Positions 5,921-12,685 of a stretch of DNA of 64,000 bases are shown here, piece by piece. The notes under the pieces are model-generated. The model was not told the origin of the DNA and ran no database searches. It worked only from the letters and a program-made list of their open reading frames with translations. Where the stretch lies: NCBI GenBank assembly GCA_002869895.2, contig NEWP02000009.1, positions 24,601 through 88,600 of the forward strand, given 5' to 3'. Position 1 is the first letter of the stretch. The number at the start of each line of letters is the position of its first letter. This DNA comes from Nitrospira sp. CG24E. GTDB taxonomy: Bacteria > Nitrospirota > Nitrospiria > Nitrospirales > Nitrospiraceae. The translations under genes were made by a program, and so were the position numbers.

Positions 5921-6028
5921 GGAATTACTCATGACAGCTGTGGCTGAAATAGAAACAAAGAGCGCTGAGCGACGTTGGGGCGCAATGGCTCGCGTGAGCG
6001 CTGACGCCAGCGGAAACTTTCTGTTCTC
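5921..6028. repeat. repeat Q (CTGAATTACTGATGGCTGCTGTGGCTGAAATAGAAACGAAGAGC...), copy 1
   Basis: About 105-nt near-duplicate of 6508-6613. Its first about 60 nt recur at 8260-8325. Confidence 0.85.
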
Positions 6029-6450
6029 GACTGTCCCGACGGGACCACAAGTCCTGCTAATCGATGGCCCGTCCGCACTCTATCCCGGAAGCCTGCCGGT
6101 GCAGACAACCATTCAACCCGGCATCGCAAACGTGTTGCCCTATCCGGTGTTCCTGCATGAAGTCGGACAGAACTATGTGCCGATTGCGCAGGGTGGGCAA
6201 ACCATCGTCGCGCCGCCCGATATTCCTGGCTTTAGCATGTTGATTCCGGCAGGCACCACGATCACCGGCTGGGACGGCCAGCCTAATGTGAAGGTCTCGG
6301 TGGTGCCGGTGCCCAACGATCGCTTGCCGATTCCGCAATTGCCGGCAAACGTCCCGGCCAAACAGGTCTACATGTTCAACTTCGGCAAACCGGGTGGCGG
6401 CTACCCGAGTCGGCCGATCCCCATCATCATGCCGGGGAAGAAAAAGGTGG
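5985..6450 (+). pseudogene. fragment of the N-terminal region of an Rhs-family / carboxypeptidase-regulatory-like wall protein
   Basis: ARVSADASGNFLFSTVPTGPQVLLIDG... reads as a beta-sandwich-type sequence. Both ends of ORF 5931-6491 are made of repeat sequence (Q on the left, P on the right). Confidence 0.45.
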
Positions 6451-6452
6451 GG

Positions 6453-6496
6453 GAAGAAAAAGGTGTCAGGAACCATTTTCCTCATGAATGAGAAAA
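6453..6496. repeat. repeat P (GGAAGAAAAAGGTGTCAGGAACCATTTTCCTCATGAATGAGAAA), palindrome-containing REP-like unit, copy 1
   Basis: Identical 44-mer at 8371-8414. Contains the imperfect palindrome TTTCCTCATGAATGAGAAA. A related AAAAAGGTGTCAGACAC sits at about 29546. Confidence 0.85.
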
Positions 6497-7285
6497 GTAT
6501 GGACAGTCTGAATTACTGATGGCTGCTGTGGCTGAAATAGAAACGAAGAGCCCGAGCGAAGTTGGGACGCGATGGCTTGCGTCACCGCCGACGCTAGCGG
6601 GAACTTCCTGTTCACCAGGGAGAAGAAGAAAAGGGGCCAGCAACTTTATGTTCGGGGGGCGCCCGCGTCGGCGCAACGTGGATTCCAGTCCCAGCGTGGC
6701 AGCGAGTTGTTGTTGCCACTCGGGTGCGCCAAACGGTTGTTGACGGTTCACACAGGTGCGGAGTGCGGTGAGTTCATGATCAACGAGCGGCTGATCCATC
6801 CACGTCGTCCAATCCTCTGGCAGCGGAATCGGCGACGGATCGGTGAGGTGGGGCCGGTGCAAACTCGACCAGGGCCATTGGCTGGTGTGTGCAACCAGCC
6901 CGGCACGGACCGGATTGCGGAGCACATAGCGCAGGACCGTGAGGAGATGGCCGTCCTCTTGAATGGGGAAGCTTTTGAAACGCCCTTGCCACACATGCCC
7001 CTGACTGCGGTAGTGCCGATGATAGCGGCGGACATGACTGGTCATCCACCACTGCATGAAGGGACTGAGCGCGGCGTCCGTCAGAGGTTGCACGACGAGA
7101 TGAAAATGATTCGGCATCAGACAGAAGCCCAAGAGTGTGACGGGATGCTTGGCTTTCGCCGTGGCGAGCAGGTCGAGGAAGGCGGTGTAGTCACCCTCCT
7201 TGTGGAAGACCGCAGCACCGCCGTTCCCGCGATTCAGGACATGGTAGGCGTGCCCGGCCACTTGACCGCGAGGAATCCGAGGCAT
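6482..7285 (-). CDS. IS200-like Y1 (HUH) transposase, REP-associated RayT type
   Basis: MPRIPRG..YHVLNRGN, HUH motif in LMPNHFHLVVQP, catalytic-Tyr region LRYVLRNPVRAGLV, then LGLESTLRRRGRP. The last about 45 codons read through repeats P/Q, so the true C-terminus is uncertain. Confidence 0.8.
   Translation of the reverse strand: MPRIPRGQVAGHAYHVLNRGNGGAAVFHKEGDYTAFLDLLATAKAKHPVTLLGFCLMPNHFHLVVQPLTDAALSPFMQWWMTSHVRRYHRHYRSQGHVWQGRFKSFPIQEDGHLLTVLRYVLRNPVRAGLVAHTSQWPWSSLHRPHLTDPSPIPLPEDWTTWMDQPLVDHELTALRTCVNRQQPFGAPEWQQQLAATLGLESTLRRRGRPPNIKLLAPFLLLPGEQEVPASVGGDASHRVPTSLGLFVSISATAAISNSDCPYFSHS
6508..6613. repeat. repeat Q, copy 2
   Basis: Near-identical to 5921-6028. Overlaps the 3' end of the transposase ORF. 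Confidence 0.85.
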
Positions 7286-7605
7286 GGCGTGAACAGGGTA
7301 GGGGAAATCGGGGGCTCAGGCAACAGAAAAGTAGCCTTGTATCTTACTTCGGTGTTCCTTCACGATATGTCTTCCGGTAACCCAGACGTGATAGACCGAC
7401 GTAGCCGAGGTCTTCAAAGACCGTGGGACAGCGCGGGTCGTCACGTCTACATTCTGAACAAGCCCGAACAGTTGCGTGGGCCATTGAGCCCGCATCGCAA
7501 GGCTGGGACACAGAATTGGGAGGCCGGGGTCTCTGGTCCGTCAGTTGTGGCATGCGTGCCTCTGAGTACGCAGGGGCGCCTCTGCGTGCTTGACAGTCAA
7601 GAAAG

Positions 7606-7917
7606 TTGCTGTCCCCTGCGCTCCCCCATGTAGTTGTGAGGGGTGGAACTAAGGATCTCCCACCGCCAGGTCAAACATTTTCTGGCGCAGCCGGACCAAC
7701 CTTAAATGATGCAGCAGCTGGAGTACCACATAACCAAATAAGAGCGACTACGGCTGGTGAGATCAGAGCTAGTGGTGGAACAGTAGTTCATGCTCCTGAA
7801 CCAACCAGGTCAGGAGCCATTAATGACAAGCATGTAAATATTTGTTCCGGATCTGGCCCTTGTCCTTTCGGGCCACTTCAACCCAATCCTGTGCCAAAGT
7901 CAAGGAGAGTGCAATGA
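7606..7917 (+). CDS. orphan polymorphic-toxin C-terminal fragment (family unknown)
   Basis: Markedly AT-richer block; ATGA overlap with a small downstream ORF; no N-terminal delivery domain. The start codon is arbitrary (frame opens just upstream). Confidence 0.4.
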   Translation: MLSPALPHVVVRGGTKDLPPPGQTFSGAAGPTLNDAAAGVPHNQIRATTAGEIRASGGTVVHAPEPTRSGAINDKHVNICSGSGPCPFGPLQPNPVPKSRRVQ

Positions 7918-8231
7918 GTAACAGAAAAGAAATCTGGCTCCAAATCGAATACGGTGAATTTCACGACATCCCTAGAGCATTTGTCGTGAATTGGAATGGT
8001 GAGTCGTACTTCTTTGACTGTGCCTTTAGTGGTGCAATAGATGACTATCCTGATGAATTTATCGTTTACAAATTGCGCCAAAATATTTCACGCAATGGAA
8101 ATACACTTCCTTGGACGGAGCTTCACACGTATGGAGAACGTGTTGGGTCTGTCAGAACTCAGGATGTAGTGTTTGATGAGTCTAAAAGAAAAGCAATTCG
8201 CGGGGATGTGTTTGACACATTCGTAATTTGA
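7914..8231 (+). CDS. putative immunity protein (105 aa)
   Basis: AAGGAGAG Shine-Dalgarno 6 nt before the ATG at 7914, which overlaps the toxin stop. Sequence is acidic and aromatic (YFFDCAFSGAIDDYPDEFIVY). Same low GC as the toxin fragment. Confidence 0.55.
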   Translation: MSNRKEIWLQIEYGEFHDIPRAFVVNWNGESYFFDCAFSGAIDDYPDEFIVYKLRQNISRNGNTLPWTELHTYGERVGSVRTQDVVFDESKRKAIRGDVFDTFVI

Positions 8232-8259
8232 TAACGTGAATTAGCAAAATAGGGACAGG

Positions 8260-8325
8260 CTGAATTACTGATGGCTGCTGTGGCTGAAACAGAAACGAAG
8301 AGCGCCGAGCGACGGGGGAATGCGA
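8260..8325. repeat. repeat Q, copy 3 (short)
   Basis: CTGAATTACTGATGGCTGCTGTGGCTGAAACAGAAACGAAGAGCGCCGAGCGACGGGGG. Confidence 0.85.
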
Positions 8326-8370
8326 TGTCCCGTCCGCGTGTCCGCGATGGAAAGGCACCGACCGTTGGGT

Positions 8371-8414
8371 GGAAGAAAAAGGTGTCAGGAACCATTTTCC
8401 TCATGAATGAGAAA
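8371..8414. repeat. repeat P, copy 2; flanked by the 26-nt direct repeat TGTCCCGTCCGCGTGTCCGCGATGGA (8326-8351 and 8428-8453)
   Basis: Exact 44-mer match to 6453-6496. Confidence 0.85.
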
Positions 8415-8658
8415 GATGGAGACAGGCTGTCCCGTCCGCGTGTCCGCGATGGAACGGCACTGAGCTTTGAGAGAGTTTTTCGACAAATGGCCCGGCTGAA
8501 GCAGCATCATGATGGGTTTTCTGAGCGCTGAAATGTCTCGAGATGAAATGACGATGACTGGTTTTTCTTCAAAAACACGCGTGCGACCAACGATGAACGT
8601 ACTTCGGCCCCGCCGCGTCTGCTCGCGGCCCGGACAGCGCTGGTCTACTTCCCTGTAC

Positions 8659-8826
8659 CTAGCCATCGCTGGTGAAGGAATGCTCGATGGTGGCTTCCCA
8701 TTGCCGTTCCCAGCGGCGCAACCAGCGGCGACTCTGACGAGTGGATGTGAAGACATCGACGCCCGCCCAGACTTCGGCGGGTGTTCTTCCCCGGAGATGC
8801 TGATGCGGACGAAGGTTGCGGGTCAG
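8659..8826 (-). pseudogene. C-terminal remnant of an rve-type integrase/transposase
   Basis: Reverse-strand translation LTRNLRPHQHLRGRTPAEVWAGVD...* matches the ..RPH..L.G.TP...W end of integrase core domains. No upstream body is present. Confidence 0.5.
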
Positions 8827-8869
8827 GTTGTCGGTTCTTGGTTGCCGGTTGCTGGTAGTGGGTTGTCGG
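8826..8869. repeat. left inverted repeat flanking the four-helix-bundle gene (GGTTG.C phased units)
   Basis: GGTTGCCGGTTGCTGGT pairs with 16/17 positions of AACCAGCAACCGACAACC in 9251-9277. Confidence 0.7.
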
Positions 8870-8878
8870 AGGGACAGG

Positions 8879-9244
8879 ATGGAGAAAAAAGCCGATTACA
8901 CGGAGCTGGTTGTGTGGCAACGGGCGATCGCCCTCGTTCCGGAGGTCTACAAGCTGCTGAAGGCATTTCCAGCGGCGGAAACGTATGCGCTTGCGGATCA
9001 AGTTCGACGGGCCGCCGTGTCGATTCCGGCCAATATCGCCGAGGGACAAGCACGGCAGCATCGGAAGGAATTTCTGCAGCACCTGTCCATTGCAAAGGGC
9101 AGCTTAGCAGAGCTCCATACGCTGCTCATCGTGGCGCAGCAGGTGGGATACATCAATGGCGATCGTCTGCGGGAGATCGAAGCGGTGTTGCAGACTGTCG
9201 GCCGTCCGCTCGCGGGGCTGATCAATCGTCTTCGGCAAGGCTGA
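8879..9244 (+). CDS. four-helix-bundle protein (23S rRNA intervening-sequence protein family, TIGR02436-like)
   Basis: MEKKADYTELVVWQRAIALVPEVYKLLKAFPAAETYALADQVRRAAVSIPANIAEGQARQHRKEFLQHLSIAKGSLAELHTLL is the signature sequence of this family. Confidence 0.85.
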   Translation: MEKKADYTELVVWQRAIALVPEVYKLLKAFPAAETYALADQVRRAAVSIPANIAEGQARQHRKEFLQHLSIAKGSLAELHTLLIVAQQVGYINGDRLREIEAVLQTVGRPLAGLINRLRQG

Positions 9245-9250
9245 CCGTGA

Positions 9251-9277
9251 GCAACCAGCAACCGACAACCGGCAACG
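9251..9277. repeat. right inverted repeat flanking the four-helix-bundle gene
   Basis: GCAACCAGCAACCGACAACCGGCAACG is complementary to the left arm. Confidence 0.7.
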
Positions 9278-9282
9278 GGGCG

Positions 9283-9456
9283 AATGAGTTCGTCTCGGAC
9301 CCAGCGCGGCTTGGGCGGCGCGTGCGGCCGGCGAGTGGGACCGCCAGCTCTTGGATTCGGCCAGAAACGCTGAGCACATGGGTGCATCCACCGGAACATC
9401 CATTGGCACAGGAGCCGGCAGTAGCGTACGACCCAATACACGAGACTCCGCAGCAT
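9283..9456 (-). pseudogene. N-terminal remnant of the same (or another) transposase/integrase
   Basis: MLRSLVYWVVRYCRLLCQWMF...RRPHAPPKPRWVRDELI resembles transposase N-termini. The reading frame then runs straight into the inverted repeat. Confidence 0.35.
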
Positions 9457-9486
9457 GCTCCTCGCTTGTTACCACTGTGGATCGAG

Positions 9487-9895
9487 CTACGGATGGCAGG
9501 ATGGCGGAAGTCGATGAAGGATGGCTGCGTGGAGTGCGTCGGCGACAGCGACATATTCGCATGTTTCCGCCATGGAAGGTACCTGCGTGTCTCCTGGGTA
9601 ACGGAATTCCCATGCGAAGACCGGTCAGCGTCGTGGCTGGGCGTACGGTCTCGCTCAAGGTGGTATCCAGCTCAAGGCAGGCGCGTCCCAACTCGTCCAG
9701 GTCATGAGTTTTCTTGAACGGCTTGTCGTGCGCGGTGAGGAAGGCTTTCAAAGATTTTTCCGCTGCTTGCTGACAATGAAACAGCGGGTCTTCAATGAGT
9801 GGGGGATCTGCGTCGAGATCAATGTGGGCGCCACGCAAGTCGTTGGCTGCTTTGCTCAGCCAGCCCCTGACTACCGCAGCCTTGTCAGGCTGCAT
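9487..9895 (-). pseudogene. HEPN-domain toxin partner of MNT, interrupted by a 1-nt frameshift near 9620-9630
   Basis: Frame 0 gives MQPDKAAVVRGWLSKAANDL...AAEKSLKAFLTAHDKPFKKTHDLDEL...ATTLT. The conserved end VFAWEFRYPGDTQ...* lies in the adjacent frame (WEFRYPG = 9592-9612). The combined length of about 136 aa is normal for the family. Confidence 0.65.
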
Positions 9896-10217
9896 AGAGC
9901 AGCACGCCTTCTCGCTCCACCGTGGCCGACAACGAGCACACGATGGTCCGCTGGCGCTCAAATTCGTCATGAGTCAGCACGAGCACATCCTTGGCGACAC
10001 CGACTCCCAGTAAGGCTTCAAAGGCGGCCTGGTCACGGCGATACCGAGGTAGTGTCGATGCGGGGACGACGACGAGCAGATCGTAGTCACTGTCTGGCCC
10101 CGCTTCCCCTCGGGCCTGTGAGCCAAACAGGTAGATGCGCTCAGGGGACAACGCCGCGACGAGACGCTGCACGATTTTCTCAATCACCGAATCGCTGGCT
10201 TGGATGGCCATGGTCAA
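9885..10217 (-). CDS. minimal nucleotidyltransferase (MNT) antitoxin-type protein
   Basis: LFGSQARGEAGPDSDYDLLVVV NTase motif; 110 aa; 11-nt overlap with the HEPN start. Confidence 0.85.
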   Translation of the reverse strand: MTMAIQASDSVIEKIVQRLVAALSPERIYLFGSQARGEAGPDSDYDLLVVVPASTLPRYRRDQAAFEALLGVGVAKDVLVLTHDEFERQRTIVCSLSATVEREGVLLYAA

Positions 10218-10250
10218 CGTGGCTCCAACGTGGGCTGATTATACCGGGGT

Positions 10251-10487
10251 ATGTGCTCGATGTCTAAGGTTCTACGACAGCTGACACACAAGGGTTGGCT
10301 CTTGGCCGTCTTCTGTTGTGTTCTTCAATTGATCACACTGCCGGGCTTGCCTGCGGCACTCCATGCCGATCAGGCGCGATACATCTACGACGATCTCGAA
10401 CGTGGTGACGGCTTTCACGTCGAACAGCGGCAATGCAGGGGCGCTGGTTACGATAGTTCTAATGCATTTACTTCCTTGAGTAAGTAG
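10251..10487 (+). pseudogene. possible N-terminal stub of an Rhs/YD-repeat protein (signal peptide plus first YD-like repeat)
   Basis: MSKVLRQLTHKGWLLAVFCCVLQLITLPGLPAALHADQARYIYDDLER..., after which the frame degenerates. Speculative. Confidence 0.25.
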
Positions 10488-10581
10488 CGTAAAGGGGAGG
10501 GAGGGACTCGATGGCGACGGATGGATGATTGATCATTGAGTTGACATAATAGTTCTTATCAGACGTGGCAGGTTTTGAATT

Positions 10582-11253
10582 ATGTCCCTTGAATTACTCG
10601 GTCGCATACAACAGGAACTGTCCGTTACTGGAAGCGCCATCTATGAAACCGTTCTCGCTCTGGCCGAACGGGCTAATCGCAAAGTGCAAGTCCTCAGATT
10701 ACACAATCAGGCATCAACTGTCTTGACCCAAATGGAACAGGTCCATGGAGAGCTCGGGCGCGAGATTGCCACCCTCTGCGCCAGACGACCGCCCTTTAGC
10801 CATGAGTCAACCATGCCATCCGATCAATTGGAACAGTCCCTCGTTCAGGCCAGCCTCCGGGTTCAGCAGCTTAAACAGACCTTGCTGAGCGTCGACAGCC
10901 TTATCCGTGAGCTCAAGCTGGAGACAATCCACCAGGAACTTATAACCCTGCAACAGGACTTGAGTCTTCGCGCCGCTGCCATCGAGCGGTTTCCGATCTC
11001 CAAAGGATCGCCGGTTATTGGAAAATCACTCGCCGCGCTGGTATTGCCCACATCGGTTCGCCTCGTCACCATCCTTCGGGGGCCAATTCTTGTGCCGCCC
11101 GATAGTAACCTAACAGTGCGCGTTAACGACGTCCTGGTGTTTATCGGTCTGCAAGCAGATCTCGCACAGGTGATCACGGAATTTACCCCAGCACCGGATA
11201 CGAGACCCCGCTCAATCGAATCTGTGATCGCATCGAGTGCTCGAAGACCCTAA
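10582..11253 (+). CDS. coiled-coil protein with C-terminal TrkA-C (RCK_C) domain
   Basis: C-terminal ...GSPVIGKSLAALVLPTSVRLVTILRGPILVPPDSNLTVRVNDVLVFIG pattern. Confidence 0.55.
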   Translation: MSLELLGRIQQELSVTGSAIYETVLALAERANRKVQVLRLHNQASTVLTQMEQVHGELGREIATLCARRPPFSHESTMPSDQLEQSLVQASLRVQQLKQTLLSVDSLIRELKLETIHQELITLQQDLSLRAAAIERFPISKGSPVIGKSLAALVLPTSVRLVTILRGPILVPPDSNLTVRVNDVLVFIGLQADLAQVITEFTPAPDTRPRSIESVIASSARRP

Positions 11254-12685
11254 GAGCAGTAAGGCTGCTAGACGTCGGATGATGCCCATGCCACAAATTC
11301 TCATCTGCCTCATATGTTTAGCCTGGCTCAATATTCACTTAGCTGCCACTGCTGCTGAGCCAGCCATGCCAGAGTCCAATAGTTCAACTGGCATCCGCCT
11401 GATGGAAGAGATGCAAACGGTCATCATCAATTTGGCCGAATCGACCAAGCCCTCGGTGGTGAATCTTATTCCCCTTTCAGAAGCAGGGAAAGGTCGGGAA
11501 TTGTCTCGTGAGCGGACTCCCAACGCTTCAGGATCGGGATCCGGTGTCGTCATCGATCCTGATGGATATATCATCACCAACAACCATGTCATCGGTGACG
11601 CGACGGCAATCGAAGTGCGTTTTTCCGATACGTCTAAGCTGATTGCGCAGGTTATCGGCAAGGATCAGGATACGGACTTAGCCGTCCTCAAGGTGAGCGC
11701 CGACCATCCTCTCCCCAGTGCCAAATTCGGAGACTCGTCGTCCGTACGGGTCGGCCAATGGGTCCTTGCCGTGGGGAATCCCTTCGGACTCGATCGAACG
11801 GTGACCCTCGGCGTCGTCAGCGGAACCGGCCGAGAGAACATCAACCTTTCTCGCTACGAAAACTTCATCCAAACGGACGCATCGATCAATCCCGGCAACT
11901 CGGGAGGCCCGCTTTTCAATCTGCGCGGCGAAATAATCGGCATCAATACCGCCATCATCAACTTCGCCCAAGGGATCGGTTTCGCTATTCCCTCCAACAT
12001 GGTCAAGCAAGTGATGGAGCAACTGCTGACTCAGGGACGGGTGACAAGAGGATGGCTGGGCGTCAGCATTCAACCGCTGACGATCGAGTTGGCCCGTAAG
12101 TTCGGCGTCAACGAAGGCGAAGGGGTACTGGTGAACGAAGTCTTCGAAAAGGATCCGGCTGCGGCAGCCGGCATCAAACCAGGCGATATCCTCACCCGGA
12201 TCGACGGTTCCGTGATCGACACGCCGAATCGCCTCTCGCGCGTCGTGGCAGGATTGCGCCCAGGTATGACGACGAAAGTCGAGATTGTTCGTGATCGGCA
12301 ACGCCTGATCCTTGACGTGGCGTTGATTGAACGTCGAGACCAAGCAGTGGCCACGTCGCTTCCCCAGGCACAAATGGAAACTCCTCGACCACGTACTGAA
12401 ATCAACCTCGGCCTGGATGTGCAAGATCTGACGCCAAGCCTCGCCAATATTTTCAAACTGCAGGAAACTCGGGGTGTACTGATCACCAAAGTGGAACCAG
12501 GCGGCCTCGCCCAATCGGAAGGCCTCCATGAAGGCGATCTGATCAAGGAAGTCAACCGCGTTGCAGTAGGATCGGTTGGAGAATTCAATGTCGCTCTCTC
12601 CGGGGTCCGGCGTGGCGATACCATTCTGCTCCGCGTCCAGAGAGAAGGCCGCGCCTTTTACGTCGTGCTCAAATCGATCGACTAG
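11237..12685 (+). CDS. htrA: periplasmic serine endoprotease, HtrA/DegP/DegQ family, two PDZ domains
   Basis: His (TNNHV), DLAVLKV and GNSGGPLFN catalytic motifs. The start may be the internal Met at about 11279. Confidence 0.9.
   Translation: MLEDPKSSKAARRRMMPMPQILICLICLAWLNIHLAATAAEPAMPESNSSTGIRLMEEMQTVIINLAESTKPSVVNLIPLSEAGKGRELSRERTPNASGSGSGVVIDPDGYIITNNHVIGDATAIEVRFSDTSKLIAQVIGKDQDTDLAVLKVSADHPLPSAKFGDSSSVRVGQWVLAVGNPFGLDRTVTLGVVSGTGRENINLSRYENFIQTDASINPGNSGGPLFNLRGEIIGINTAIINFAQGIGFAIPSNMVKQVMEQLLTQGRVTRGWLGVSIQPLTIELARKFGVNEGEGVLVNEVFEKDPAAAAGIKPGDILTRIDGSVIDTPNRLSRVVAGLRPGMTTKVEIVRDRQRLILDVALIERRDQAVATSLPQAQMETPRPRTEINLGLDVQDLTPSLANIFKLQETRGVLITKVEPGGLAQSEGLHEGDLIKEVNRVAVGSVGEFNVALSGVRRGDTILLRVQREGRAFYVVLKSID

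Follow-up and report, generated by a model that had tools for sequence, protein, structure and literature searches.

Intervening sequences (IVS) of 23S rRNA that carry an S23p ORF occur in Coxiella burnetii and Leptospira (PMC4990558). The Coxiella IVS forms a long stem, which is excised by RNase III, and tandem heptamers in variable number lie beside the start of its S23p gene; the ORF itself is decaying and probably not translated (PMC4990558). In our full-text literature search, the only system for which this protein family was tied to a stem and heptamers was the Coxiella 23S rRNA IVS (PMC4990558). The locus described here comes from the genome of Nitrospira sp. CG24E (G000), a MAG whose HtrA homologues bear names from the Nitrospiraceae, and we refer to the 64,000-nucleotide stretch of DNA that was analysed as the window. 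It holds a gene of the same four-helix-bundle protein family (4HB in the following), which was first found in rRNA intervening sequences. This family, PF05635, is large and spans many phyla. A related fold is found in Avd, the accessory protein of diversity-generating retroelements (DGRs). As for the surroundings of the gene, they recall mobile insertion cassettes and other non-autonomous IS derivatives, where a passenger gene replaces the transposase core and the terminal parts of the element stay.

The features of the locus, with positions in the window, are the following:

8428-8658, minus strand: 3' untranslated tail of the integrase element, with its outer terminus GTCCCGTCCGCGTGTCCGCGATGG at 8429-8452, placed by the homology boundary in the alignment and in blastn
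8659-8817, minus strand: C-terminal stub of the integrase (residues ~256-307 of 307 aa and the stop codon), placed by homology to intact relatives
8814-8872, plus strand: left arm, about eight tandem GGTTGNC heptamers, the first bases overlapping the last integrase bases
8866-8871, plus strand: Shine-Dalgarno-like GGAGGG directly after the last left heptamer and 7 nt 5' of the ATG, read from the sequence
8879-9244, plus strand: 4HB gene (121 aa; PF05635 / TIGR02436), placed by profile matches and dN/dS
9250-9277, plus strand: right arm, which complements the left one with about 3.7 GCAACCN units and begins 5 nt past the 4HB stop codon
9279-9456, minus strand: N-terminal stub of the integrase (residues 1-58, ATG at 9456), placed by homology to intact relatives

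The sequence-only reading from which we started had placed a gene of the 23S-IVS family on the plus strand at 8879-9244, and the profile searches bore this out. Its product matched PF05635 (23S_rRNA_IVP) with E=7.9e-36 and 123 bits, against a cut-off of 33.8, over profile positions 2-104 of 106, and it matched TIGR02436 with E=1.8e-35 and 121.5 bits, against a cut-off of 24. The closest solved structure was 2GSC, the protein XCC0516 of Xanthomonas campestris (E=1.3e-21, residues 7-120). XCC0516 is a homopentameric ring of four-helix bundles. A promoter scan of the DNA 5' of the gene returned no promoter-like site.

The related fold raises the question of whether the gene encodes the Avd protein of a DGR. 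The product does show weak similarity to bAvd (PF22296; 38 bits) and to NF033474 (40 bits), but both scores fall below their cut-offs, 40 and 80 respectively. In addition, the genome, which is 98% complete, contains no match to the reverse transcriptase family PF00078. Taken together, the sub-threshold Avd scores and the missing reverse transcriptase exclude a DGR for the assembled part of the CG24E genome. The genome also has no template or variable repeats, and heptamer arms are not a feature of DGRs.

The gene had also been described as bracketed by complementary arms, with 16 of 17 positions pairing in the best segment. This best pairing was confirmed (8840-8856 with 9254-9270; 17 nt, 94%), but the left array proved longer than noted, covering 8814-8872 instead of 8826-8869. 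Over a longer segment, 8827-8853 pairs with 9250-9276 at 85% complementarity (27 nt). As a background for the ungapped pairing score of the arms, 17.0, we used 1500 random pairs of 113-nt stretches from the CG24E genome with similar spacing. These pairs had a mean score of 7.0 (sd 1.06), and only one of them reached 17. When the RNA was folded, the arms paired and closed the whole 4HB ORF in both the minimum-free-energy and the centroid structure, with the fold of the 486-nt locus reaching only z = -1.87 against shuffled sequences.

A long stem with an ORF in its loop, the arrangement proposed beforehand for this protein-coding setting, matches the ORF-bearing IVS of Coxiella (PMC4990558). As in the ORF-bearing 23S rRNA IVS, a PF05635 ORF sits in the loop of a long stem made by terminal inverted repeats. 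As in Coxiella, tandem heptamers in variable number lie just 5' of the start codon, and the total length is about 0.43-0.46 kb. Several properties set the window cassette apart. Unlike the 23S rRNA IVS, it lies outside rRNA and antisense in a protein-coding gene of a mobile element, and an Rfam scan of positions 6000-12000 found no rRNA or any other Rfam family. Unlike in the Coxiella IVS, both arms are heptamer arrays, and the ORF is under purifying selection instead of decaying. Excision by RNase III has been demonstrated for the IVS; for the window cassette it would follow by likeness only. The cassette differs as well from the gene-less inverted heptamer arrays that occur between bacterial genes, since its loop holds an intact, selected gene.

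We then consider the gene in which the cassette lies. Neither minus-strand stub alone matched Pfam, and a HMMER search with the 55-aa C-terminal stub gave 39 matches, mostly short fragments, which added nothing. The identity of the stubs became clear from intact relatives in a genome of the same genus (G004), namely the uninterrupted 256-aa integrase ORF at locus L013 and a full-length but more distant relative of 380 aa at locus L021. The translation of 8662-8817 is 73% identical to residues 205-256 of L013 (84% over 44 residues in another alignment). At the DNA level, window positions 8428-8816 align to 1234-1631 of L013 and positions 9279-9327 to 2223-2271 (88% identity), with strand and order preserved. 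The two remnants had been attributed to one rve integrase gene; with both colinear on L013 and an uninterrupted version present in a relative, this attribution stands, and the possibility that they derive from different genes does not hold.

The alignment also fixes the replacement boundaries, which coincide with the heptamer arrays at both ends. Where L013 has positions 1632-2222 (591 bp), the window has 461 bp that consist of exactly the arms and the 4HB gene, the latter running antisense to the integrase gene. The missing part had been estimated at about 250 codons. By alignment to L013 and to full-length 307-aa integrases of Nitrospira, the figure is instead about 197 codons, between residues 58 and ~256. 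The integrase of the window therefore retains residues 1-58 and ~256-307 alone and has no rve catalytic core; the missing stretch would hold the conserved D, D and E motifs of that core. Intact relatives score 61.5 bits with rve_3 (cut-off 26.5) and 100 bits with an IS481 transposase model, which is under its cut-off of 224, and relatives of the L013/L021 type match rve as well as rve_3. Because the rve_3 score passes its threshold and the IS481 score does not, we regard the disrupted gene as an IS481-like rve integrase, present here as a pseudogene.

The same composite of integrase stubs and cassette was found in six other assemblies, at loci L063, L064, L067, L153, L154 and L156, and we compared these with the window, using L013 as the uninterrupted reference. 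The 4HB proteins are 90% (L063), 83% (L154), 83% (L064 and L156) and 79% (L067) identical to that of the window. The copy at L153 is a frameshifted ORF, 87% identical over its truncated length. For pairs among the composites, the 4HB gene has a dN/dS of 0.09-0.18 at a dS of 0.35-1.5, and the GGAGG motif upstream of it is conserved in all of them. Such low ratios across diverged composites indicate that the 4HB gene was kept functional during a long stay in a dead gene. The same junctions in six assemblies that have diverged to this extent also point to an old insertion that was mostly inherited vertically, and not to a recent hop.

The composites differ in how much of the integrase is left. 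From the multiple alignment and tblastn searches with intact integrases, three nested states could be read. L067 keeps residues 1-62 of L013 (with an in-frame stop) together with residues ~128-256; L064 and L156 keep only the N-terminal stub and residues ~128-256; the window, L063, L153 and L154 keep the N-terminal stub and residues 205-256. The right junction, an arm followed by GGGGCGAATGAG-type sequence, is identical in all composites except L067, and the left junction is common within each group of the same deletion state. The order of the states agrees with the 4HB identity to the window (90%, 83%, 79%). Three nested states with shared junctions show that the integrase was lost in stages, at least three of them after the cassette had arrived, and that every deletion borders on an array. 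Both breakpoints of the C-side deletion read AGGT, which suggests microhomology. The simplest history would be one entry, after which first the N side and later the C side lost DNA in a deletion that stopped at an array.

The arrays themselves changed in length. On the left, the unit count is 2 for L067, 3 for L064 and L156, 8 for the window, L153 and L154, and 11 for L063. L153 and L154 are 96.5% identical and yet two right-arm units apart. What the window cassette adds to the published IVS is specifically this dated series, which documents both the persistence of the cassette and the erosion of host DNA next to its arrays.

The series does not reach back to the moment of entry. Even L067, the least deleted composite, is already without about 65 integrase codons. 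In nine contig look-ups together with 80 genome loci and 80 metagenome loci, no simple-insertion state, no composite less deleted than L067 and no target duplication was seen; the yield consisted of additional composites such as L156. A candidate enzyme for inserting the cassette was not found either. We also considered whether the arm heptamer was templated from the target, where the native codons for AGCR read GCCGGTTGCCG, equal to 1.5 arm units. This was rejected because L067 keeps the AGCR codons and yet has the same right arm elsewhere.

Vertical descent of one composite does not explain everything about the stubs. Between composites, the differences in the C-terminal stub fall on codon positions 1, 2 and 3 in the numbers 65, 42 and 206, with a dN/dS of about 0.12-0.27. 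This third-position bias is unlike free-running pseudogene DNA, and it would not be expected if a single insertion had simply decayed neutrally. An explanation would be that a cassette-bearing integrase allele was copied or exchanged into resident integrases through the homology of the stubs, with no insertion activity of the cassette itself; such exchange would also keep the stubs looking selected. Several comparisons speak for it. The C-terminal stub of the window is nearest to intact L013 (11 differences in 117 nt, compared with 20-27 to the other composites), in conflict with the 4HB tree, where the nearest copy to the window is L063. L153 and L013 share a right flank that is 98% identical over 706 bp, including the same N-terminal truncation, and are only 81% identical to the left of the cassette junction. 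Within its N-terminal stub, L153 resembles L154 up to GTTC and L013 from CTCCCGC onward, a switch which places a crossover inside the stub. Partners for such exchange are abundant in Nitrospira, with 1221 proteins of this integrase subfamily at E<=1e-40.

On the other hand, tblastn found no intact integrase paralogue in the CG24E genome as it is today. The left flanks of L153 and L013 differ too, which leaves no clean conversion tract, and the stubs are short (39-52 codons), so the conflicts in distance are noisy. Moreover, exchange between alleles accounts for the spread of the cassette among integrase copies and not for its first entry into an integrase. That cassette-bearing and uninterrupted alleles recombined, refreshing the stubs and potentially moving the cassette between copies, is thus suggested by these comparisons. 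As a full substitute for an insertion of the cassette, we consider recombination possible, though it is clearly not the explanation that we favour.

The outer limits of the element bear on another explanation, in which the integrase element gave rise to a non-autonomous form, spanning 8428 to ~9466, that carries 4HB as a passenger and is moved in trans by intact integrases. As in mobile insertion cassettes, the core of the transposase gene is replaced by a passenger gene and the terminal parts of the element are retained. Among eight loci (the window, the six composites and L013), the homology on the left begins exactly at GTCCCGTCCGCGTGTCCGCGATGG (8429), beyond which each has unrelated DNA; this motif has three copies in the CG24E genome. 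The start codon and the N-terminal stub have been kept open in the window, L063 and L067. The element has a GC content of 60%, compared with 55.8% for the CG24E genome and 50-53% for the other 4HB genes. Nevertheless, no inverted repeat was found between the regions around 8429 and 9466, so that the ends are not joined by a terminal repeat as they are in mobile insertion cassettes, and no target duplication was seen at the ends of the element. There is one copy per genome, and L153, L154 and L013 are entirely without the N-terminal end. The right flanks are broadly syntenic, with an RHS gene in L064, L156, L067 and L063 and HEPN-MNT genes in L067 and the window, so that we prefer a composite inherited vertically at a single variable locus to one that transposed. 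We therefore consider transposition in trans improbable and retain the reading of an old cassette entry followed by stepwise erosion.

The CG24E genome has 11 PF05635 matches, and all 11 are flanked by inverted arms of tandem heptamers, so that the opposite outcome envisaged beforehand, paralogues without inverted repeats, does not hold. The architecture is common to all 11, but the arm sequence is not shared: the heptamer is different in each and includes, among the paralogues, AGCTTTC, GGTAAGT, GTGAAGC and TGGTCAG. The nine other paralogues whose neighbours were examined all lie between complete ORFs, and the window cassette is the only one among them inside a broken gene. The eight identified neighbours include the pairs ispF/cysE and rmlD/rmlA and, as single neighbours, dapF, an undecaprenyl-phosphate glycosyltransferase-like gene and a gene for GDP-fucose synthase; an UpxY-type antiterminator lies downstream of one cassette.

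The heptamer follows the protein. Over 131 cassettes, the heptamer was shared within one mismatch in 76% of pairs with at least 80% protein identity, in 33% of pairs at 70-80% and in 13% at 60-70%, compared with a baseline of approximately 7%. None of 300 label permutations matched this trend. A donor of the window cassette within the genus was considered and rejected, as the nearest 4HB protein in 41 genomes of the genus is only 49% identical. Relatives with 63-72% identity lie beside a MarR gene, with no integrase, at L071 and L072, where the arms consist of GGTTGTC; others at this level of identity were found in Lysobacterales and Xanthomonas MAGs, with arms of the GGTTGNC type.

Comparison with sister species showed turnover at individual sites. 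At two other sites, the cassette of CG24E shares only 48-60% identity with its counterparts at the same site in two to five sister species; these counterparts are 86-95% identical to one another, and their heptamers differ from that of the CG24E resident. At these two sites, one cassette has taken the place of another. A third site has no cassette in CG24E and is filled in three relatives. At C6:123.2k, a gene-less heptamer hairpin in CG24E stands where a sister species carries a complete cassette built on another heptamer, and at a fifth site the 4HB gene has an internal deletion. The heptamers of one clade in unrelated contexts and phyla, the tracking of heptamer with protein and the replacement in place all lend indirect support to the cassette being a transferable unit. 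The suggestion that the cassette is mobile thus gains support of an indirect kind, with the qualification that the copy in the window is old and not a fresh insertion.

The number of arrays in the genome also invites a reading at the level of DNA, in which the arrays would act not as an RNA stem but as single-strand DNA hairpins or cruciforms for an IS200-like Y1 recombinase of the RAYT type. A Y1_Tnp gene does lie at 6482-7285, 1.4 kb away, and the CG24E genome contains 196 arrays with a period of 7 as well as about 14 inverted heptamer hairpins without a gene, the one at C6:123.2k among them. A strand test of arm mismatches gave RNA no advantage, with 48 mismatches of the G:U type and 35 of the A:C type over 58 cassettes, a difference that was not significant and did not separate pairing of RNA from pairing of DNA. 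However, Y1 enzymes recognise one conserved hairpin, whereas the heptamers here differ at every locus. Next to the RAYT gene lies another repeat, a 39-mer with two copies, and no link between RAYT genes and cassettes was found in relatives. A DNA hairpin element is, in our assessment, very unlikely.

Taken as a whole, the account that we consider likely combines an old entry of the cassette, stepwise erosion next to the arrays, a selected ORF, an RNA stem and travel as a unit. An IVS-type cassette, consisting of the left array, the Shine-Dalgarno sequence, a 121-codon PF05635 ORF and the right array, would have entered the gene of an IS481-like rve integrase in antisense orientation long ago, in a lineage of the Nitrospiraceae. 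In the transcript, pairing between the arrays would give a stem, imperfect and no shorter than 27 bp, that closes a loop containing the Shine-Dalgarno sequence, the ORF and the stop codon. By likeness to the 23S rRNA intervening sequences, this stem may be a substrate of RNase III, and it would either cut the cassette RNA out of the surrounding transcript or insulate it from that transcript. The 4HB protein, related to Avd and presumably ring-forming, most likely binds nucleic acid as a predicted function, and its target could plausibly be the heptamer stem of its own cassette. The arrays probably slip easily, and slippage would account for the varying number of units as well as for the host DNA lost alongside. 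The arms would travel with their gene, from site to site and from phylum to phylum.

The locus offers a rare before-and-after view, in that the disrupted gene shows a foreign segment bounded exactly by the arrays. The seven dated snapshots show the gene of the cassette conserved, the arrays expanding and contracting, and the adjoining host DNA being lost. Beyond this locus, a broader reading, which we put forward tentatively and hold to be less probable than its opposite, is that the union of a PF05635 gene with inverted heptamer arrays defines a whole class of self-contained cassettes, bounded by hairpins, whose arms and gene move and evolve jointly across phyla. If so, recognition of the cognate stem by the ring protein would be the reason why every protein lineage retains a heptamer of its own. 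Besides rRNA and the gaps of operons, such cassettes could also land in protein-coding genes. They would outlive the disrupted gene under selection, and their slippage-prone arrays would delete the neighbouring DNA. The intervening sequences of 23S rRNA would then be merely the first-noticed members of this class.

The C-terminal integrase stub was compared among the composites, the loci here and in other assemblies in which a cassette sits in the same integrase; the comparison covered window 8662-8817 and its counterparts in L063, L064, L067, L153 and L154. The differences fell mainly on third positions (65, 42 and 206 at codon positions 1, 2 and 3, respectively), and dN/dS was 0.12-0.27. The dead stub behaves as if selection at the protein level were still acting on it, or as if it were regularly converted from live copies.

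To the left and the right of the window cassette lie the following features:

Window 6482-7285, minus strand: IS200-like Y1 transposase, RAYT-type (PF01797, E=5e-13)
Window 9490-10217, minus strand: HEPN-MNT (nucleotidyltransferase) toxin-antitoxin pair

The Y1 transposase gene, 1.4 kb from the cassette, is adjoined at 6457 by a 39-nt sequence (AAAAAGGTGTCAGGAACC...), a second copy of which occurs at 8376 and is flanked by integrase-element terminus motifs at 8327 and 8429. Since the repeat lies between these two terminus copies, the terminus has been duplicated around a small insertion. On the other side, the HEPN gene carries a frameshift near 9618-9625: compared with the window, residues 5-94 of the L067 HEPN match one frame and residues 95-131 another. 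Because of this frameshift, the called ORF 9104-9970 reads on through the N-terminal integrase stub into the four-helix-bundle (4HB) gene.

Further genes adjoin the composites elsewhere. A PIN toxin-antitoxin pair lies to the right of L063, and the L153 contig carries additional features:

L153 1-455 and 629-1260: a further integrase copy, incomplete and with 89% identity to residues 1-140 of L013 (an uninterrupted relative); DUF433/DUF5615 toxin-antitoxin pair, just left

Toxin-antitoxin and RHS genes thus have a hotspot at the composite locus.

In the genome of the window (G000), four 4HB cassettes occur within 32 kb of a sugar-nucleotide/polysaccharide gene cluster (C10:3,890-35,038), in settings that include the rmlD/rmlA gap and a position upstream of an UpxY antiterminator. 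One further gap there (C10:21,165-21,618) is likewise armed but contains no recognised gene. At C10:4,252-4,800 and C10:23,069-24,001, the called ORFs of downstream genes reach into the right-hand heptamer array, which gives them false repetitive N-termini (MTQLNQTNQINQTNQMNQTN... for the UpxY-type gene and MTPLTTDHLPLTTPHSPLT... for rmlA).

Cassette content at other G000 sites differs from that of related genomes. C6:123,178-123,281 holds a GCGTGAA heptamer hairpin without a gene, whereas the site in G033 is filled by a complete cassette whose arms are of GAGTGCT type; C6:164,982-165,067 has a different 10-bp hairpin and no cassette, one being present in G004, G012 and G032; and C6:208,745-208,847 retains a 4HB remnant with an internal deletion, the G016 gene there being intact. 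Two intergenic sites are occupied:

G000 C6:45,932-46,234: cassette site L006
G000 C10:34,721-35,038: cassette site L003

Sister-species cassettes at the same site are 86-95% identical to one another; the G000 cassette is only 48-60% identical to them, and its heptamer differs. At both sites the cassette has been replaced in place.
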